Shown: positions 2,412 through 50,148 of the stretch, piece after piece
Layout: each line of letters begins with the position of its first letter
Position numbering within the stretch: position 1 is the first letter of the stretch
DNA from: an uncultured Candidatus Saccharibacteria bacterium
Lineage (GTDB): Bacteria > Patescibacteriota > Minisyncoccia > Phycocordibacterales > UBA2100
Length of the DNA stretch: 64,000 bases
Reading direction: 5' to 3'
Assembly (NCBI GenBank): GCA_964589005.1
Contig: CAZPQI010000001.1
Span: forward strand, 67,675 to 131,674
Notes under the pieces: generated by a model
What the model saw: the letters and a program-made list of their open reading frames with translations, nothing else
Told to the model about the DNA's origin: nothing
Databases searched by the model: none
Program-made: the position numbers and the translations under genes

Positions 2412-3477
2412 GTGTTTGTGTTATTAGTGATTCTTCATACAACTCTAAGTCTTCTAATATCATTCCCGTACCTCGTACCACGGCCGTCATCGGATCGTCT
2501 GATACGTATACCGGCACACCTATATGTTCGCTTAGCAACCCCGACAAGCCACGTATAAGAGCGCCTCCGCCAACTATGTATATTCCACGGCGCATCACGT
2601 CCGATATAACTTCAGGAGGTGCTGTTTCAATAACTTCCTTAACTGCATCTACCAATTGGTCAATCGAACCAGCAATAGCCTCGCGTATATCTGTATCAGT
2701 AATAATAACCTCTCGCGGTAATCCAGTAATTAAATCGCGCCCTCGCACTGTTCCTTCTAGTGGTGTCTCTCCTTCCACAACGCTCGCAGCTGTAATCTTT
2801 AGTTCTTCTGCTGACTTTTTCCCGATGAGAATCTTAAATTCGCTACGAATGTAATTCATAATGTCGTCGTCGAGCTTGTCTCCTGCAATTCGCACGTTTT
2901 TGGAGTTCACAATCCCCCCTAGAGAAATAATACCGATATCCGTTGTGCCACCACCGATGTCTATAATCATAGAGCCCGAAGGTTCTTTAACTGGTAAACG
3001 AATTCCGATTGCGGCTGCCATTGGTTCTTCCACAATAAACACTTCGCGCGCACCTGCGTTTCGTGTAGCGTCTTGTACGGCTCGGACTTCAACCGAGGTT
3101 ATACCTGAAGGAACACCAACGACAACACGAGGCCCTAAGAGACGAGTTTTTCCATCCTGCGCCTTACGAATTAAATAGCTAAGCATTTCTTCGGTAACTT
3201 CAAAGTCTGAGATCACTCCATCAACTAACGGCTGAACTGCAACAACATGCGCAGGGGTTCTACCCAACATGCGTTTAGCATCAGCTCCTATCGCCACTAC
3301 CTGACCAGTTTTTTGATTCAATGCAACCATCGAAGGTTCATTGAGAACTATTCCGCGGCCATTTACATACACCAGCGTGTTCGCAGTTCCTAAGTCAATT
3401 CCAATATCATCGGAAATCAATCCCATCACACGAGTGGAGAGATGCTTGAACCATGCCCGAAGTCGTTCCATACGCAC
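2389..3477 (-). CDS. mreB: rod shape-determining actin-like protein MreB
   Basis: 362 aa. Motifs GIDLGTANT, DIGGGTTD and VVRGTGM. The true start may be a few codons inside the tracked ORF. Confidence 0.95.
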   Translation of the reverse strand: MRMERLRAWFKHLSTRVMGLISDDIGIDLGTANTLVYVNGRGIVLNEPSMVALNQKTGQVVAIGADAKRMLGRTPAHVVAVQPLVDGVISDFEVTEEMLSYLIRKAQDGKTRLLGPRVVVGVPSGITSVEVRAVQDATRNAGAREVFIVEEPMAAAIGIRLPVKEPSGSMIIDIGGGTTDIGIISLGGIVNSKNVRIAGDKLDDDIMNYIRSEFKILIGKKSAEELKITAASVVEGETPLEGTVRGRDLITGLPREVIITDTDIREAIAGSIDQLVDAVKEVIETAPPEVISDVMRRGIYIVGGGALIRGLSGLLSEHIGVPVYVSDDPMTAVVRGTGMILEDLELYEESLITQTHELSPTE

Positions 3478-6242: not shown

Positions 6243-6791
6243 CTACTGGCTAATTTCTATTTCTTTTTTCTTAAATAATTCTTCTAGCGAACTATTTCCT
6301 GTATCAATATGTTTTTGTAGTTCGTCTTTAGCGCCAAATTTTTCGTCTTCGCTCATGTCTCCTGCTTTTTCTTTTGCTTGAATATCTCCCCACGAATCTT
6401 CGCGTGCACCGCGCAAACTTTGGCGTGCGTCTTCCAATTTGTCTTTAGCAATTTTTATAAGCGAGTCGCGGCGCTCGGACGTAAGCTCAGGAAACGAAAT
6501 TCTAATCCCTTTGTCATCAACACCCACCCCAACACCAAAATTTGCGTCGTTAATTGCTTTCTCAATTTCTTTTATTTGCGAAGTGTCCCACGGAACAATG
6601 CGTAGCGTTCGTGCGTCCTCAACACCAATATTTGCCACTTGATTAAGGGGCATCCGTGAACCGTAGCTATCTACTTGAATTGAATCCAGTAGCGTTGGTG
6701 TTGCGCGCCCCGTGCGAAGTCCCTGATACTCTTTACGCAGCCATTCTTCCCCTTCAGTAATTTTTAACTGCAATTCTTTGAAATCGTACAT
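6243..6791 (-). CDS. frr: ribosome recycling factor
   Basis: 182 aa of typical Frr sequence (LRTGRATPTLLD..., VPWDTSQIKEIEKAI). Confidence 0.95.
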   Translation of the reverse strand: MYDFKELQLKITEGEEWLRKEYQGLRTGRATPTLLDSIQVDSYGSRMPLNQVANIGVEDARTLRIVPWDTSQIKEIEKAINDANFGVGVGVDDKGIRISFPELTSERRDSLIKIAKDKLEDARQSLRGAREDSWGDIQAKEKAGDMSEDEKFGAKDELQKHIDTGNSSLEELFKKKEIEISQ

Positions 6792-10789: not shown

Positions 10790-12313
10790 TTAAATATCAC
10801 TCACTATTTCTATCTGTGCCCCAATATCTGCGAGGCGCTCGGCAATACGCTCGTACCCTCTTTCAATTGAATATACGTTTCGCAATAAAGAAGTTCCCTC
10901 TGCTGCAAGCATGGCAATAAGCACCACCACCGCAGGACGAAGAGCAGGTGGACACACTACCTGTGCAGCTCTAAGTTCTGTTGGTCCTGTTACAAATACG
11001 CGATGTGGATCGGCAAGTTTTACATCCGCTCCCAAACGATTAAGCTCAGTAAAATAAATAGCTCTTCCTTCCCAAGCCCAATCGTGGATTAGAGTAGTGC
11101 CCTTTGCTTGTGTCGCAATAGGAACAAAGAACGGTAAGTTATCAATGTTAAGCCCTGGATACGGTAGCGGATGTATTTTTATGGGAGACGCTTTCAACTC
11201 CGATGGATATATCGTAAGGTCTACAAGTTTCGTTTTTCCGTTTTTGGAAAAATACACTTTACCTTGTTCATACTTTAATCCCATGTATGTAAGCTTAAGT
11301 AACTCGACTTCAAGAAACTCAATGGGGCACCTTTTTATTTGCAGTTCAGACTTCGTTACTGCTGCGGCACTTATAAACATCATCGACTCTATCGGGTCTT
11401 CGCTATTGTAGTGTGTAATTTTTTTGTCTATTTCGTCTACCCCATACACGGTTAGAGTCGTTGTTCCTACCCCATCAATACGTACGCCAAATTGCCGCAA
11501 CAAAAAACAAACGTCTTGTACTTGGTAATTAGGTGGAGCGTACTTTATTACTGTTTTTCCAGGAATCAGCGCCGCTGTCATCAGTGCGTTAATCGCAGCA
11601 GTGTCACTCGCCTCATACATAACAATTTCTGTAGGCTTCAATTTTTTTACTTTAAATGAATAGTGATTTTCGTGGGTTCCTACACGAACACCAAGAGATT
11701 CAAGGGCGTGCTTGTGTGCAGCTATTGTTCTATCACCCATATTACATCCACCAGCGTGTGGAAGCGTAAAATCGCCTTTACGATGCACCATTGCGGGAAT
11801 AAGCATAAGTACCGATCGCATTTTGCTTGCAGCACTTTTGTCTATACTGGAAAGTTTAAAACTTTTCGGGGGGGTGATATGTAATGTGCACTCGTTAAGA
11901 GCATCAACTTGCACGCCAATGCTTTTAAATACCTCAATCAGTCTATGAATTTCTTCTATGCGTGGAATTCCATGTAGCACTGTCGGAGCCTTGTTTAAAA
12001 GAGACGCACACATCAAAGCAAGCGCGCCGTTTTTGGAAGTGTTAGTAACTGCTGTTCCATGTAACTTTTTTCCACCGGTAACTTTAAAGTCTAAACCTTC
12101 TTTTAAACCAACAACTTGATGTTGTAATACATCGCTTATTTTCAATAGTTGTGTTGTAGAAAGGTTCTGGTCACCCTTTTCCATGCGCGCAACTGCCGAC
12201 TGCGAAGTTTGCATTGCTTGTGCAAACGCTTTCTGAGTTAACCCGCGCTTACGACGAAGATCTTTGATAAAAAGTCCAATTTTACGATGTGATTCTGAAG
12301 ACATGGGGTTCAA
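10790..12313 (-). CDS. murA: UDP-N-acetylglucosamine 1-carboxyvinyltransferase with an N-terminal XRE-family HTH domain (fusion)
   Basis: Residues 1-65 form an HTH_XRE domain (LRRKRGLTQKAFAQAMQTSQSAVARMEKG). From about residue 70 the sequence is MurA-like (KVTGGKKLHGTAV...NGALALMCASLL), including the active-site Cys loop HAGGCNMGDR. It is a single uninterrupted ORF. Confidence 0.8.
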   Translation of the reverse strand: MNPMSSESHRKIGLFIKDLRRKRGLTQKAFAQAMQTSQSAVARMEKGDQNLSTTQLLKISDVLQHQVVGLKEGLDFKVTGGKKLHGTAVTNTSKNGALALMCASLLNKAPTVLHGIPRIEEIHRLIEVFKSIGVQVDALNECTLHITPPKSFKLSSIDKSAASKMRSVLMLIPAMVHRKGDFTLPHAGGCNMGDRTIAAHKHALESLGVRVGTHENHYSFKVKKLKPTEIVMYEASDTAAINALMTAALIPGKTVIKYAPPNYQVQDVCFLLRQFGVRIDGVGTTTLTVYGVDEIDKKITHYNSEDPIESMMFISAAAVTKSELQIKRCPIEFLEVELLKLTYMGLKYEQGKVYFSKNGKTKLVDLTIYPSELKASPIKIHPLPYPGLNIDNLPFFVPIATQAKGTTLIHDWAWEGRAIYFTELNRLGADVKLADPHRVFVTGPTELRAAQVVCPPALRPAVVVLIAMLAAEGTSLLRNVYSIERGYERIAERLADIGAQIEIVSDI

Positions 12314-44740: not shown

Positions 44741-45682
44741 TCATAAATTAGAGGAACGATTCAATATAACTAAAAGTGCCATCCTAACCCATAAACCATT
44801 TTGAGCTTGCTCGAAGTGGCGTGCGTGCGAGTCGTTGTCCACCTCCACTGCCATTTCATCCACTCTCGGCAATGGATGCATAATAATTGCATCGTCCTTC
44901 ATTTGTTCAGCTAACTTTTTTGTTAATACATATTTTCCTTGAGCTTTTTCGTATTCTTCTTCACTCCCAAAGCGCTCCTTTTGTATTCGAGTCATATAGA
45001 GTACGTCTACTTTTTTAATGACTTCCTCAATCGTCTGCAGTTCCATATATGGAACTGCATTCTCTTTTAAATGTTCTTTCAGACTCTCCTTAAGCGAGCA
45101 GCTCTTTGGAGCAACAAAGCTAAAAGAATTTCCTGTGAATTTGGCAAGAATATACACCATCGAATCACACGTGCGCCCGTTGAGTAAATCGCCCACTCCT
45201 GCGATATGTAAGTTCTCGAGCGTTCCATGCTCGCGCCAAATGGTGTACACGTCAAGAAGCCCCTGCGTTGGATGCTGGCTACGCCCCGAGCCTGCGTTTA
45301 TCAATGGAACAGAAACTGTGGAGAGTGCTTTTATAGATGCGTCATCTTCGTGATGTCGCATAATAATCATATCGCTGTACATCGAAATAATACGAATAGT
45401 ATCTTCAATAGTTTCTCCTTTAGATACTGAAGAAGAACCTCGGGCGTTTTCAGTGGAAATTATAGAGCCACCCAGGCGAGCTATTGCAGACTCGAACGAA
45501 AGGCGCGTGCGAGTTGAGGGTTCATAAAAAAGCGTGGCAACTACTTTGCCACGCAATTCATTTTGGTATTCCTGAGGATTTGTCCGAATATCGTCAGTAA
45601 GAGCAAATAATTCCGCTAGAAACTCCGGCGTAAATTGCTGCGCGAGTATAGTGTGTGTATACGGACTCGGGTACGTACCCAT
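44741..45682 (-). CDS. pyrB: aspartate carbamoyltransferase catalytic subunit
   Basis: Motifs STRTRLSFE, HPTQ and HPLPR. The start is taken at the internal Met (MGTYPSPY). Confidence 0.95.
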   Translation of the reverse strand: MGTYPSPYTHTILAQQFTPEFLAELFALTDDIRTNPQEYQNELRGKVVATLFYEPSTRTRLSFESAIARLGGSIISTENARGSSSVSKGETIEDTIRIISMYSDMIIMRHHEDDASIKALSTVSVPLINAGSGRSQHPTQGLLDVYTIWREHGTLENLHIAGVGDLLNGRTCDSMVYILAKFTGNSFSFVAPKSCSLKESLKEHLKENAVPYMELQTIEEVIKKVDVLYMTRIQKERFGSEEEYEKAQGKYVLTKKLAEQMKDDAIIMHPLPRVDEMAVEVDNDSHARHFEQAQNGLWVRMALLVILNRSSNL

Positions 45683-45783
45683 TAAAACTAAATGGTAACA
45701 TTGGGACTCACAAACCACAAATATTGTAAAAATAAATTACCCTCATTAGCTTGCTCTAGAGTAGTTTATTACTACGTAGTTAT

Positions 45784-46791
45784 CTACGTATTTAAATGCT
45801 GAGAAAAAGGGTGTATGCATTCTTTTAACTCATAAGCATCCCCATGTCCTAGTAAACCTAAGTACGATTGCAAAGTCTCTTGCTTTCCATCAGTTTCAGC
45901 AACCCTCTTTAACATCCTGCGTTTTGTTACACTGCGTAGCACACGATGGTTAGGAAAATGTACCCAACCTAAAAAATCTATCCCAGAAGCAAGTGTCTCA
46001 ACAGAAGTCTTTCGTTGATGTAATTCGAGCTGTAGTTTAACTTGTAAAAACCTTTCGATATATCGAAAGGTTTTTACAGGAACATTCCTATCGTGTGAAA
46101 GAAACATGAAATCGTCAGCATAACGAATATAGTATTTTGCTTTCAGTTTGTGCTTAACAAACTGGTCAAACTCATTCATATATATATTAACAAAAAGTTG
46201 CGAAGTGAGGTTACCAAGCGGTAATCCTTTTCCTTTCACCCCGGAGTTGAAGCTCCCCATAATTTCTGCCAAAAGTGCAATACTATCTTTGTCAGCGATA
46301 TGTTTCTTCAAAATATCCATTAAGATACTATGGTCAATAGAGGCAAAGAACTTTCGTATGTCGCTTTTAAATACCCATACTGTTTTCGTGTTGTTTTTGG
46401 AAACTTTGTTTGAAAAACTACGAAAACGATTCACCGCTTTGTGTGTTCCCTTATTACTTCTACAAGAATATGAGTCAGCGATGAACGTGTTGTCAAAATA
46501 TGGATAGAGTTGTCTATATAATGCGTGGTGAAGCAAGCGATCACGGACACTTGCCTTGTGAATATTTCTTGGCTTCGGGTCGGAAATATTAAAGGCTTCG
46601 TATTTGCCATGCTTGTATATTTTGTTTTTTAAATCTTGGTGTAATGAAAGTATGTTATCCATTAGATGTAATTGGAATTCCTGCACATCTTTTCGTTTTC
46701 TTTTACCATTGAGAAATTCCTTCCACGCACCAAGAAGATTTTCTACTGAGATGATATCATTGTATGTATGAGAAAATCTCAACATCAGCAT
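45784..46791 (-). CDS. reverse transcriptase, DGR-type
   Basis: YIRYADDFMF is the YADD catalytic motif. GLPLGNLTSQLFVNIYMNEFD carries the DGR-specific [I/L]GxxxSQ motif 4. The N-terminus is FENLLGAWKEFLNGKRKRKDV. No maturase/X or En domain, 336 aa. The start is at ATG (MLMLRF); the tracked ORF uses an upstream TTG through a G10 run. Confidence 0.9.
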   Translation of the reverse strand: MLMLRFSHTYNDIISVENLLGAWKEFLNGKRKRKDVQEFQLHLMDNILSLHQDLKNKIYKHGKYEAFNISDPKPRNIHKASVRDRLLHHALYRQLYPYFDNTFIADSYSCRSNKGTHKAVNRFRSFSNKVSKNNTKTVWVFKSDIRKFFASIDHSILMDILKKHIADKDSIALLAEIMGSFNSGVKGKGLPLGNLTSQLFVNIYMNEFDQFVKHKLKAKYYIRYADDFMFLSHDRNVPVKTFRYIERFLQVKLQLELHQRKTSVETLASGIDFLGWVHFPNHRVLRSVTKRRMLKRVAETDGKQETLQSYLGLLGHGDAYELKECIHPFSQHLNT

Positions 46792-46798
46792 AATACTA

Positions 46799-46808
46799 CC
46801 CCCCCCCC
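46799..46808. repeat. C10/G10 homopolymer in the 35-bp gap between the RT and avd start codons
   Basis: Read from the sequence. This is the only long G/C homopolymer noticed in the window. Confidence 0.8.
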
Positions 46809-46826
46809 GCAACTACTCAACCTAAG

Positions 46827-47180
46827 TTGATACCAGTGGTTTTAAGATTGAAGGATGTGTACGGTATATGGCAAGCATATCTTATACACTTCCCGAAACA
46901 AAATCGCTATACTCTTGGCTCAAAAATTGACGAAGTATTCTTGCTCGCTATAGAATATTGTTTCCTAGCTAGTTACGCCCCAAAAGATACTAAAATTATT
47001 CACCTCAACCGCTGTATATCGCGAGTTGACCTTCTTAAGTTACTTTTACAATTATCTTGGGAAATACAAGCACTGGACACTAAAAAATATACGGTACTTA
47101 GTGAACAACTACAGGAAGTAGGCAGAATGCTTGGCGGGTGGAGAAAGGGGTTGGAAGTTAAAAACTCCCCACAAAAGTGA
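46827..47180 (+). CDS. avd: Avd-like accessory variability determinant (four-helix-bundle, 23S rRNA-IVS protein family)
   Basis: 117 aa. YGIWQAYLIHFPKQNRYTLG..., the central LLKLLLQLSWEI, and the C-terminal EVGRMLGGWRKG line up with Bordetella bAvd (EVGRILGSWIARVNRKG). Initiates at TTG. It is encoded on the strand opposite to the RT, TR and target. Confidence 0.7.
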   Translation: MIPVVLRLKDVYGIWQAYLIHFPKQNRYTLGSKIDEVFLLAIEYCFLASYAPKDTKIIHLNRCISRVDLLKLLLQLSWEIQALDTKKYTVLSEQLQEVGRMLGGWRKGLEVKNSPQK

Positions 47181-47193
47181 GGAGAAAATGATG

Positions 47194-47309
47194 TGTTGCT
47201 TGACCACCAAGCGATGGCGAGAGTCCGCATTCCAGACGTTGTCATTGTCAAAGCGGTTCACGTTGACCTTGAGCTTACCAGCATTCACATTGACGTTAGC
47301 GACAAACAG
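47194..47309 (-). repeat. DGR template repeat (TR)
   Basis: The minus-strand reading frame is LFVANVNVNAGKLKVNVNRFDNDNVWNADSRHRLVVKQ, with 8 AAC/AAT codons. It is 100% identical to the VR except at 10 adenines. Confidence 0.85.
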
Positions 47310-47638
47310 AGACGATATGTGAAGTGTGCCATCCATACCACCAACATTTGATAGCGAATTAACAAATATTTGTATTTTATGCGAGACCTAAAAGTCTTCA
47401 GAGAACACCTCACCAACAAACTATTTTTTTAAAAGAAATAACGTAACCATGCTCCAATCAGTCGTAACTTTATGAACTCTAAACTACGTCTTCCTACACA
47501 CAAACTTCCAAAGCCGTGACCGTTGAAATATTATCTGTGGCTTCCTTAGTATACAAAAGAAATCCCTCGGGCGCCCATAAAAAATGAGAGCGTCCGAGGG
47601 ACTAAGGTTCAAAGGGTCAAAGACCAAAGTGCAAAGAA

Positions 47639-48295
47639 TCAAACAGTCTGTTGCTTGACCACCAAGCGATGGCGAGAGTCCGCACGCCAGACGTAGCCAT
47701 AGTCAAAGCGGTCCACGTAGACCTTGAGCTTACCAGCACTCACATCGACGTAAGCGACAAACAGTTCATCATTTACTTCAAACAAAAAGAAGGTGCCATA
47801 TCCTTCTTGCCGGAGCAAGTCGCGATGCGAGCGGCAAAACTCTTTTATCTGTCCCTGGGTGAGACAGAACTTGTGTGGGTCGCCGAGTGAGCTAAACAGC
47901 GTTTGATAGTTACCGTCGTGTGTCATTTCGTACACGTCAACGGCTGTTTTTTCGGTGTCTTCGCCGGGGACGTTCGTGCTCCAGTTTTTGAAGTCACTGT
48001 CAACCCATCCGTTGAAGACGTCGTTGGCTTTAGCGAGTGTGACCGCGCCCTTCGCGAAAGCGATGGTGGTACTTTCAAGATAATGGAGGTAATCGTTGTC
48101 CTTGGTAGGGGCGATGGCCTCTAAAAATGCCTCGATACCACATTCCATTGCTTCGGCTCCAGCCTGAGTGCCAAGACGATGAATCGCCTCATCACTTATT
48201 CCGTGTTCACGGAGTCCGTTGATAACCCCACCTGCAAACTGAACGAGCCAACCTGCACCAGAGATAATCTCGTGTGGTTTATTTTTGCTAGACAT
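47639..48295 (-). CDS. DGR target protein (218 aa) with C-terminal variable region
   Basis: No signal peptide (MSSKNKPHEIISGAG...). The last 41 residues (LFVAYVDVSAGKLKVYVDRFDYGYVWRADSRHRLVVKQQTV) are encoded by the VR. Confidence 0.8.
   Translation of the reverse strand: MSSKNKPHEIISGAGWLVQFAGGVINGLREHGISDEAIHRLGTQAGAEAMECGIEAFLEAIAPTKDNDYLHYLESTTIAFAKGAVTLAKANDVFNGWVDSDFKNWSTNVPGEDTEKTAVDVYEMTHDGNYQTLFSSLGDPHKFCLTQGQIKEFCRSHRDLLRQEGYGTFFLFEVNDELFVAYVDVSAGKLKVYVDRFDYGYVWRADSRHRLVVKQQTV
47649..47764 (-). repeat. DGR variable repeat (VR)
   Basis: Aligned to the TR, the substitutions are N>Y, N>D, N>S, N>Y, N>D, N>Y, D>G, N>Y and N>R (the last being 2 nt). Every changed nucleotide is A in the TR. 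Confidence 0.85.
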
Positions 48296-48615
48296 TTTAG
48301 TCCTTCCTATGGTTCAAATCTCATTCAGAACGTGTGTCCCAAACCTCATTCTCACCAATTTAAGTTGAAAAATACTACGCCACAATGGTCATAGCTACAA
48401 ATCACCTAAACTTAGGTACCTTGTAGCTATAACCAACAAAATCTCTTATGTAAAGAACTATGCGTATACTATACCACATTTTATAGAGTACGCAAGTTCG
48501 CAAGTCCTGAAAGACAGGTAGAAATACACAGGATGCACAAAAAAACTGTTTCGTAGTTACGTAGCGAATCCAGTGTTGGGTATACTGTATGAAGCTTCAA
48601 ATTCATACTAGATCA

Positions 48616-48641
48616 AAGTGTATCGGTTAACCGATACACTT
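48616..48641. repeat. 26-bp perfect palindrome aagtgtatcggttaaccgatacactt (copy 2 of 2), flanked by a 7-bp direct repeat actagat
   Basis: Identical to 6864-6889. actagat lies at 48607-48613 and at 48646-48652. Confidence 0.85.
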
Positions 48642-48669
48642 ATGCACTAGATTTTAAGATTAATTTTAG

Positions 48670-48707
48670 AAATAATACCGCACTTGTTAATAAGTGCGGT
48701 ATTATTT
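48670..48707. repeat. 38-bp near-perfect AT-rich palindrome (aaataataccgcactt gttaat aagtgcggtattattt)
   Basis: 15-bp arms. Lies directly after palindrome copy 2, mirroring the arrangement at 6864-6944. Confidence 0.75.
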
Positions 48708-48779
48708 AAGCTAGCAGCTCCAAGCTCACGACTACTTTCCCAAGGCGAGCAAGAGTGCTGCTAGTTCGAGGAGTATAAG

Positions 48780-48827
48780 AAAACTACTTCGAGATGTACG
48801 TCTTTGGTACTTCTCGAAGTAGTTTTT
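48780..48827. terminator. rpoD terminator: 15-bp-stem hairpin (aaaactacttcgaga...tctcgaagtagtttt) flanked by A and T runs
   Basis: Lies 40 bp downstream of the rpoD stop on the minus strand. Symmetric, so it could act bidirectionally. Confidence 0.7.
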
Positions 48828-48867
48828 GTAAATGCGACAAAGAAATAGTAGTGCTGTTGCTCGCCGA

Positions 48868-50148
48868 CTAGTAGTTTTTCAACTGAGCAGCCCTCTCGTG
48901 TAATCGTATTTTCTCAAGCGACTTTGCTTCAATTTGTCGGATACGTTCGCGCGTAACACCAAACATCTTTCCAACTTCTTCAAGTGTGTGGCAAATCCCC
49001 TCTTCGTTGAGGCCGTTACGCATTTCCAGAATTTTTCGTTCTTTATCTGAAAGTTCTTCAAGTACTGCAGTAATATGCTCTGAAAGAATACGACGACTCG
49101 CGGATTGGTCGGGGGACTCCATTCTATCGTCGGCAATAAAGTGCCCAAGTGTTGACTTGTCTTCGCCTTCATCACCCACTGGTGATTCCAAACTAATAGT
49201 TGCTTGGCTAATTTTCTGAATATGGTGAATTTTCTCAACATCTAAGTCCATTTCTACCGCGACTTCTTCTGGCATTGGGTCTCGCCCTAAGTGTTGCGAA
49301 AGCTCGCGCACTCGCTGTTTATACTTTGCGATTGTTTCCACCATGTGCACAGGAATACGAATCGTGCGCGACTGGTCGGCAAGTGCACGAGTAATAGCTT
49401 GGCGAATCCACCATGTTGCGTATGTTGAGAATTTATATCCTTTTGTGTAATCAAATTTATCAACTGCCTTAAACAGACCAAGGTTTCCTTCTTGAATAAG
49501 GTCGAGTAACGTAAGGTCGCTTGAACGTCCTACATACTTTTTGGCAATCGAGACTACAAGACGCAAGTTCGAACGAGCTAAAATACCGCGCGCCTCATCG
49601 TCGCCAACCTCAATACGCTTTGCGAGCTCTTTTTCCATATCAGCATTAATAAGTGGGTATTGACCAATTTCGCGCAAGTACATTTGTACTGAGTCGCGAG
49701 ACGCATCCGACCCTGAGCCAAACTTTTTCTTATCAAGAATAGTTTCGGTGTTATTTTCTAGAAGACCACCACTTTCGAGCACATCAATCCTCGCTGCTGC
49801 GAAACGTTCGTACAGTTCCTCAAGAAATACAATATCCTGCTCGATAGCGGGAAACTCTTTAAGAATCTCATCGTATGTAACATACCCGCGTTCGTGTCCT
49901 TTTTTCAATAGCTTTTCCGCTTGACGTTCCTTTTTTGACGCCCCTTTCTTTGGTGGTGTACGTTTTGGAGTAATTTTTTTAATCGCAGCTTTAACAACGG
50001 GTACAACCTTAGAAACAGCGGGTTTCTTCGTGATTTTCCTTACCGCTTTTTTTACTGACGTTTTTTTAGCAACCTTTTTGGTCACTGCTTTCTTCTTTAC
50101 TACTGCCTTTCTAGGGGCAATTTTCTTTGTGGTCTTCTTTTTGGCCAT
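48868..50148 (-). CDS. rpoD: RNA polymerase sigma-70 factor RpoD with Lys/Ala-rich N-terminal tail
   Basis: Regions 1.2 to 4 are all present ([21 protein letters not shown], the [14 protein letters not shown] -10 recognition motif and the 4.2 [21 protein letters not shown]). The N-terminal roughly 75 aa is about 35% Lys ([27 protein letters not shown]...). Confidence 0.95.

Follow-up and report, generated by a model that had tools for sequence, protein, structure and literature searches.

The window described here, a stretch of 64,000 nucleotides from an uncultured Candidatus Saccharibacteria bacterium, contains a complete diversity-generating retroelement (DGR) at positions 45784-48295, in which the reverse transcriptase (RT) gene and the divergently oriented accessory gene avd are separated by a short gap with a run of ten G residues on the RT-sense strand. 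We consider it probable, if well short of certain, that this run is part of the spacer of the RT promoter and acts at this locus as a slipped-strand switch or rheostat on RT. The anatomy of the junction can be read directly from the window, and in relatives the repeat is conserved, specific to this junction and polymorphic in length.

The RT-sense strand is the minus strand of the window, and the element and its junction consist of the following parts:

45784 to 46785, minus strand: DGR reverse transcriptase (RVT_1, PF00078, E = 1e-22; motifs LGNLTSQ and YADD)
46793 to 46798, minus strand: -10-like hexamer TAGTAT, directly abutting the G-run
46799 to 46808: C10 on the plus strand, that is, G10 on the RT-sense strand; simple-sequence repeat, proposed variable promoter spacer
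46815 to 46820, minus strand: -35-like hexamer TTGAGT, 16 nt upstream of the -10-like box across the spacer AGTTGC + G10
46827 to 47180, plus strand: avd, bAvd-like four-helix-bundle accessory gene (PF22296 bAvd, E = 3e-13), divergent from RT
47160 to 47184, minus strand: terminator-like hairpin CTCCTCAC-TTTT-GTGGGGAG followed by T5, 10 nt after the template repeat and inside the 3' coding end of avd
47194 to 47309, minus strand: template repeat (TR), on the RT-sense strand about 340 nt downstream of the variable repeat
47649 to 47764, minus strand: variable repeat (VR), 116 nt, 91% identical to TR
47639 to 48295, minus strand: DGR target gene, an open reading frame (ORF) of 218 aa with the VR at its 3' end

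With its RVT_1 domain and its [I/L]GxxxSQ and YxDD motifs the RT has the features of a DGR-type enzyme, and the accessory gene those of an Avd. TR and VR differ by 10 mismatches over 116 nt, and all 10 fall at adenines of the TR, the adenine-specific pattern of a DGR; the position of the VR at the 3' end of the target ORF is likewise that of a DGR. A Pfam scan of the target ORF gave no match, and an Rfam scan of 45000-49000 returned chance-level matches only. Homologues of the RT number in the thousands, the named ones coming mostly from metagenome-assembled genomes (MAGs) of Patescibacteria, with a few record titles giving another taxon or none. In the window strain just one more contig, L091, covers both TR and VR; it matches the window without a difference over 4 kb and carries little information.

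The first-pass annotation had placed avd opposite to RT across a gap of 35 bp (46792-46826), with a C10/G10 homopolymer between the two start codons. The homopolymer is present as described, and the gap is exact if RT starts at ATG 46791 and avd at TTG 46827, while other choices of start codon give gaps of 14 to 65 bp. The candidates for RT are ATG 46785, ATG 46791, and TTG 46812, the last of which gives the longest ORF and reads through the G-run; those for avd are TTG 46827, GTG 46836, and GTG 46857, and an NCBI-sourced avd protein (P0122, 107 aa) matches the start at GTG 46857. No other G/C run in the 64 kb reaches 8 nt, and from composition about 0.01 runs of 10 nt or more would be expected there. 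A contingency locus needs a repeat long enough to slip (about 7 or more for G/C), and the run length n is 10 here and 7 to 13 in relatives, with a mode of 9-10. A G7 at 11868-11874 was considered as a further relevant run and set aside as irrelevant, lying inside a 507-aa ORF on the opposite strand.

The junction was compared in two surveys. The first comprised 80 loci, one genome per species, with RTs 59-68% identical to that of the window, and 75 of them have avd. The second, used as a replication set, comprised 80 metagenome loci (61-69% relatives among the matches listed, the nearest not included), and the two together provide 146 usable loci (75 + 71). The avd gene is divergent from RT and directly upstream of it at 74 of the 75 loci of the first survey and at 70 of the 71 metagenome loci among the matches listed. 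The layout had been called unusual in the first-pass annotation, which also considered that avd may have been inverted; the comparison with related genomes that it proposed shows the arrangement of the window to be the norm in this clade, and the orientation to be ancient and clade-wide, with no local event. It is also a published one. Architecture B3, TR-(avd)-RT, is said to form 90% of the DGR set of the Candidate Phyla Radiation (CPR) in the relevant passages of Wu et al. (2018, Nucleic Acids Research, PMC5758913), and the window has its core order of TR, avd on the reverse strand, and RT. Target with VR, TR, reverse-strand avd and RT agree in order and orientation between the window and B3 as described in those passages (PMC5758913). 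The same passages on architecture and orientation mention no junction repeat, TR-proximal hairpin or phase variation, a search of the paper for repeat or homopolymer terms not having been made.

A run of at least seven G is present in the avd-RT gap at 63 of the 75 loci of the first survey, the window included, and at 61 of the 71 metagenome loci among the matches listed. The pooled figure is 124 of 146 loci (about 85%), and another 12 (about 8%) have a different simple repeat in its place (for the second survey again among the matches listed). These replacements are (AG)16, (GA)12, (GA)10, (CT)10, (TTCG)9, (TGGC)8, and (TGGC)6 at seven loci of the first survey, and (GT)n or (CTGG)n at five loci of the second among the matches listed. 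Within 568 kb of locus sequence, runs of at least eight G occur 60 times at the junction and 4 times elsewhere, the latter being about the chance number. All 60 junction runs have the G on the RT-sense strand, and all seven non-homopolymer repeats in the 568 kb are at the junction as well. The sequence flanking the run is unconserved among related loci, and a repeat is thus kept while both its motif (poly-G and six others) and its flanks change, as at contingency loci. Retention of a repeat with a changing motif is a classical signature of selection for mutability and not for sequence.

Outside this group of relatives the B3 layout occurs with no such repeat. In a sister clade (IMG/VR contigs L210, L212-L223, and L233; RT 46-59% identical) the layout is B3 and the junction repeat is absent, the sole repeat-bearing exception among the IMG/VR contigs in this identity range being L211 with G11; the avd of the sister clade has an ATG and a short N-terminal extension, and its start abuts or overlaps the RT start. 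In more distant phage DGRs (RT at most 40% identical) avd is co-oriented, the TR lies between avd and RT, and there is no repeat. Because the repeat is absent from the sister-clade B3 loci and from the co-oriented phage DGRs, the run is, judged from this comparison, an add-on that the B3 layout does not need.

A closer look at the region between TR and RT bears on how RT is transcribed. The GC-rich stem-loop of the window (47184-47165, then T5) has counterparts in related loci (L001-L205), where a hairpin lies 10-25 nt past the TR on the RT-sense strand with the consensus ...TTTCTCTCC-loop-GGAGAGTTTTGTTTT. A hairpin with a T-run follows the TR at 107 of 131 related loci, as against 4 of 131 control regions. 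This hairpin likely ends the TR RNA as a terminator, gives the DGR RNA a structured 3' element, or does both, and the TR RNA probably does not traverse avd; the earlier picture of a TR transcript running antisense through avd is not supported, given a hairpin of this kind directly after the TR. Because a terminator-like hairpin follows the TR, RT would need a promoter of its own. Candidate elements of such a promoter flank the run in the window and in relatives (-35-like element; spacer; -10-like element; distance to the start codon):

Window: TTGAGT; AGTTGC + G10 (16 nt); TAGTAT; N7-ATG
P0002 (82% relative): TTGCGA; N9 + G9 (18 nt); TAGGAT; N7-ATG
P0003 (75% relative): TTGCAA; N9 + G8 (17 nt); CATTCT; N7-ATG
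P0199 locus: TTGCCA; N7 + G9/8 (16/15 nt); TATTCT; N12-ATG

For promoter statistics 121 non-redundant loci were used. TAnnnT follows the run immediately at 41 of them, where about 3 would be expected, and the RT ATG lies exactly 13 nt past the run, that is, 7 nt past the hexamer, in 28 loci. The best resemblance to TTGACA is reached at 16-18 nt upstream of the hexamer; the enrichment there is just weak, and one fixed -35 hexamer for all loci was rejected. The length of the run and its distance to avd offset one another (Spearman -0.51, p = 0.006), the sum of the two having a mode of 17 and a variance of half the summed variances. The position of the -10-like box also agrees with the habits of the genome. 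At least 15 other genes of the window have TAnnnT (often TATACT) 5-8 nt, mostly 6-7 nt, before the start codon, for example those starting at 6791, 7995, 14347, 18858, 36519, and 42318, and Shine-Dalgarno-like sites are rare; because of this the genome appears to use mostly leaderless mRNAs. Since this typical geometry favours ATG 46785, which lies 7 nt past the -10-like box, we propose this codon as an RT start of the leaderless type.

We also noticed G-runs beyond the junction in one related species (L004, with L105-L113), in which two further G10 runs lie near the DGR, at 3404-3413 and 5253-5262 of L004. One of these two runs is part of a promoter close to consensus, TTGCCA-N8-Gn-TATAAT-N6-ATG, which lies upstream of a PG_binding_1/Lcl_C gene pair, and n is 7, 9 or 10 between contigs. 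The other immediately precedes a second avd-like gene and makes up the 3' arm of a hairpin.

Variation in run length was followed in groups of contigs from different samples that encode an identical RT or an identical Avd, 11 of which were informative. Two exact-protein contig sets (P0094 and P0102) were excluded, since their called RT ORF includes the run and the look-up forces equal length. The run length varies in 5 of the 11 groups, over a range of 8-11:

P0062 population: 8, 9, 9, 9, 10 (five contigs), 11
P0076 population: 8, 9 (five contigs), 10, 11, 11
P0009 population: 9, 9, 10
L132/L133: 10 versus 8
P0199 population: 9 (four contigs) versus 8

Four of these sets were aligned over 1.5-2.3 kb, and in them the run is the sole indel, accompanied by 0-2 single-nucleotide polymorphisms, while A/T runs of 7-8 are invariant. 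Length variation among otherwise identical genomes, a further property of contingency loci, is therefore present in relatives of the window. In the two best-sampled polymorphic populations the other upstream differences are about 22-25 clustered substitutions in the VR, located at about -1011 to -915 from the RT start in L081-L083 and L088 and at about -966 to -896 in L004 and L105-L107. Because the differences between contigs are confined to the VR besides the G-run, the DGRs of these two populations are active. Another population (ten contigs, all G9) showed no VR difference among the eight compared.

We propose that the G10/C10 run would be a simple-sequence contingency repeat in the control region of a CPR-type B3 DGR. 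It would form most of the 16-nt spacer of the RT promoter in the window (TTGAGT, AGTTGC + G10, TAGTAT, 7 nt, ATG 46785). Slipped-strand mispairing during replication would shift the run by one nucleotide or more in either direction, the shift would change the -35/-10 spacing and with it RT transcription, and cells would then differ heritably and reversibly in whether, or how strongly, the target gene is diversified. As the 5' end of avd either includes the run or follows closely on it, this gene may be affected too. In sister lineages with the run or a di- or tetranucleotide repeat within the 5' coding region of RT, the enzyme would be switched by frameshift instead. We infer the effect of run length on expression, the use of the promoter and the reversibility of the change from sequence comparison, by which phase variation for the clade as a whole is well supported.

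Several points weigh against such a switch. Six of the variation groups, including ten contigs with G9 and the window strain, show no difference in length, and the closest relative, P0002, has G9 in three assemblies. The data are short-read consensus assemblies, in which Illumina reads and assemblers can miscall long G-runs, and some differences of one nucleotide may be technical, an explanation that is unlikely for spans of 3 nt. The promoter elements are consensus matches, and the clean TAnnnT-N7-ATG pattern fits about one third of the loci; the -35 element is weak in other promoters of this genome, so that sensitivity to spacer length is not guaranteed, and the tetranucleotide repeats, at 24-36 nt, are ruled out as simple -35/-10 spacers. 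The uniform orientation of the G could reflect inheritance and not function. As for identical tract length, which the first-pass annotation had regarded as telling against slippage, the window strain has G10 in three of three assemblies, which are identical over 4 kb so that their agreement has little weight, whereas relatives do vary. The earlier suggestion of a slippage-prone tract that phase-varies RT and/or avd is in this way borne out in part: the tract is conserved at about 85% of loci, polymorphic in 5 of 11 groups and situated in a predicted promoter spacer or in 5' coding sequence, while no change was seen in the window strain.

A different reading, which we regard as unlikely for the window, places the switch at translation, with RT read from TTG 46812 through Gly codons, or avd from ATG 46768 through Pro codons, and turned on and off by frameshift. 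TTG 46812 is indeed in the RT frame at n = 10, and in related loci the run can be part of the gene. At 37 loci a start codon is missing from the stretch that separates the run from the conserved RT N-terminus, which places the run within the 5' coding region. Nine of them, from the first survey, were checked, and there the run is read as Gly codons in an uninterrupted RT frame; several of the dinucleotide repeats also lie inside the RT 5' ORF. An in-frame upstream start is found at 21 of the 37 coding-type loci and is missing at 16, several of which would gain one by a change of one nucleotide in the run, and the split reads as a mix of ON-like and OFF-like states. The window, however, has two in-frame ATGs after the run, where most relatives start, and the upstream TTG is unneeded.

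As for avd, the predicted protein of close relatives passes through the C-run (M...PPP...QPKLIPVV). The N-terminus of Avd, x-L-P-V-L-x-K-L-K or, in the lineage of the window, QPKLIPVV, varies like coding sequence, as do the residues between the run and the LPV/IPV motif, with K/R exchanges and synonymous Pro and Leu codons. A canonical start after the C-run is often absent, the codon at the apparent avd start being TTG at 32 of 75 loci and one of the Leu codons TTA or CTN at 24 of 75, and the Avd lengths given by gene callers range over 103-183 aa. In the window itself one further element is relevant:

46768 to 46770, plus strand: ATG upstream of the C-run, out of frame with avd at n = 10

This ATG would be in the avd frame at n = 11 or 8 and give M..PPP..ATTQPKLIPVV, as in P0121 and P0123, and at n = 11 the RT spacer would moreover be 17 nt long. 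Against it, a TAA closes the avd frame of the window just upstream of the run. There is also no excess of in-frame upstream avd starts at the real run length (47 of 121 loci, versus 66 at n-1 and 52 at n+1), and avd starting upstream of the C-run was rejected as a general rule. A search for an avd promoter or a leaderless avd start revealed no consistent pattern. A coupled effect of the run on avd is possible, and as a rule it is unsupported by these counts. The closest Avd relative (L290, 91% identical) has an interrupted tract, C9-T-CC on the avd strand, by which the spacer region is extended to 12 nt and the pure run cut to 9, with an upstream ATG in frame with avd.

Returning to the promoter-spacer switch, it has also to be weighed against a fixed DNA or RNA element, such as a rigid GC spacer or an insulator separating the divergent genes, a homopurine/homopyrimidine former of H-DNA, a partial extended -10 or a G-rich surrogate of a ribosome-binding site, whose length differences would be neutral or erroneous. 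The G is always on the RT-sense strand, most of the replacement repeats are purine/pyrimidine-biased, for example (GA)n and (CT)n, and several populations have a constant run length, all of which speaks for such an element. Other replacements, namely (TTCG)n, (TGGC)n, and (GT)n, resemble poly-G in nothing but being repetitive, however, and error is a poor explanation for run lengths that differ by as much as 3 nt where all else is constant. The sister B3 clade does without an element of this kind, and for a Shine-Dalgarno function the 13 nt to the ATG are too many in a genome that rarely uses such sites. Taken together, this makes a fixed element improbable. That the run is a chance homopolymer or an assembly artefact without biological meaning can be dismissed almost entirely: homopolymers are error-prone in short-read data, but composition predicts about 0.01 such runs for the window, and more than 120 independent assemblies, produced by different projects, have one at the same position and in the same orientation.

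Further structures were seen within and around the DGR. The RT coding region contains a perfect 36-nt palindrome without a loop at 46043-46078 (TGTAAAAACCTTTCGATA / TATCGAAAGGTTTTTACA). On the downstream side of the target gene and VR, about 40 nt away, there is a GC-rich hairpin, CCCTCGG...CCGAGGG, at 47560-47610, and on the upstream side of the target gene a 24-nt inverted repeat at 48386-48435. These two may be ordinary terminators or VR-proximal structure of the type known in other DGRs.

As a rule, DGRs are treated as diversifiers that are available constitutively, and to our knowledge the regulation of DGR mutagenesis is largely unknown. If the promoter-spacer switch is real, CPR/Patescibacteria cells would gamble on when to mutate, besides into what. 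A tentative extension, which may or may not hold for the main DGR clade of Patescibacteria, is second-order bet-hedging: the repeat would set RT spacing in 1-nt steps, in some lineages the frame of RT or of an extended Avd with 3-nt periods, so that hypermutation itself would be switched stochastically, and further G-runs at the promoters of DGR-associated neighbours would extend this logic to targets. Contingency loci are known mostly from host-adapted pathogens, and they would then operate in environmental ultra-small bacteria as well. The activity of the Patescibacteria DGR clade is below average (Roux et al. 2021, PMC8144416), and a switch that is frequently OFF would, if true, fit this lower apparent activity in metagenomes (PMC8144416). 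For practical use, run length offers a simple genomic marker that can be correlated with VR turnover in existing time series, and "broken" or start-less RT or avd genes in such MAGs may be phase-OFF and not pseudogenes, which should be borne in mind in annotation.

A full-text literature search found no paper linking DGRs with such a repeat, Paul et al. (2017, Nature Microbiology) being outside its coverage. Close parallels exist in phase-variable surface structures. In the hifA/hifB fimbriae of Haemophilus influenzae the length of a repeat sets the -35/-10 spacing. As cited in PMC12721329, the combined promoter region of these genes is variable (van Ham et al. 1993, Cell), and as in the window two divergent genes share a short control region containing a simple repeat. 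The differences are that hifA/hifB has (TA)n, two mapped overlapping promoters and a surface structure as output, whereas the window has poly-G, a promoter predicted for RT only and a mutagenesis enzyme. The fim2/fim3/fimX promoters of Bordetella pertussis have poly-C/G tracts, about 7-15 nt long and variable among strains, that immediately precede the -10 box (Willems et al. 1990, PMC1891110), and for fimX the transcript level differs 3.8-fold between C7 and C8 (PMC1891110). Like the run of the window, these are poly-C/G tracts adjoining a -10 box; the fim promoters depend on a site for the activator BvgA upstream of the tract, whereas no comparable site is known at the window.

In Neisseria, poly-G/C tracts in the promoter spacer of porA and opc give graded expression, and poly-G tracts in ORFs give on/off frameshifts. 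HmbR is described as an example of the latter in the relevant part of PMC3786947. Both modes, promoter spacer and 5' coding, recur across the loci related to the window, although Neisseria are host-adapted pathogens switching surface antigens and the present loci belong to environmental ultra-small CPR bacteria and concern the RT of a retroelement. Phasevarions, that is, phase-variable DNA methyltransferases, are the same in concept insofar as they are outlined in PMC5909438, a repeat switching an enzyme with population-diversifying effects; their output is epigenetic regulation of many genes, whereas here it would be targeted hypermutation of one. Phase variation by promoter-spacer or 5' coding repeats, DGRs, and architecture B3 are all known already, and what appears to be new is the run itself, a repeat that would govern a targeted-hypermutation system.

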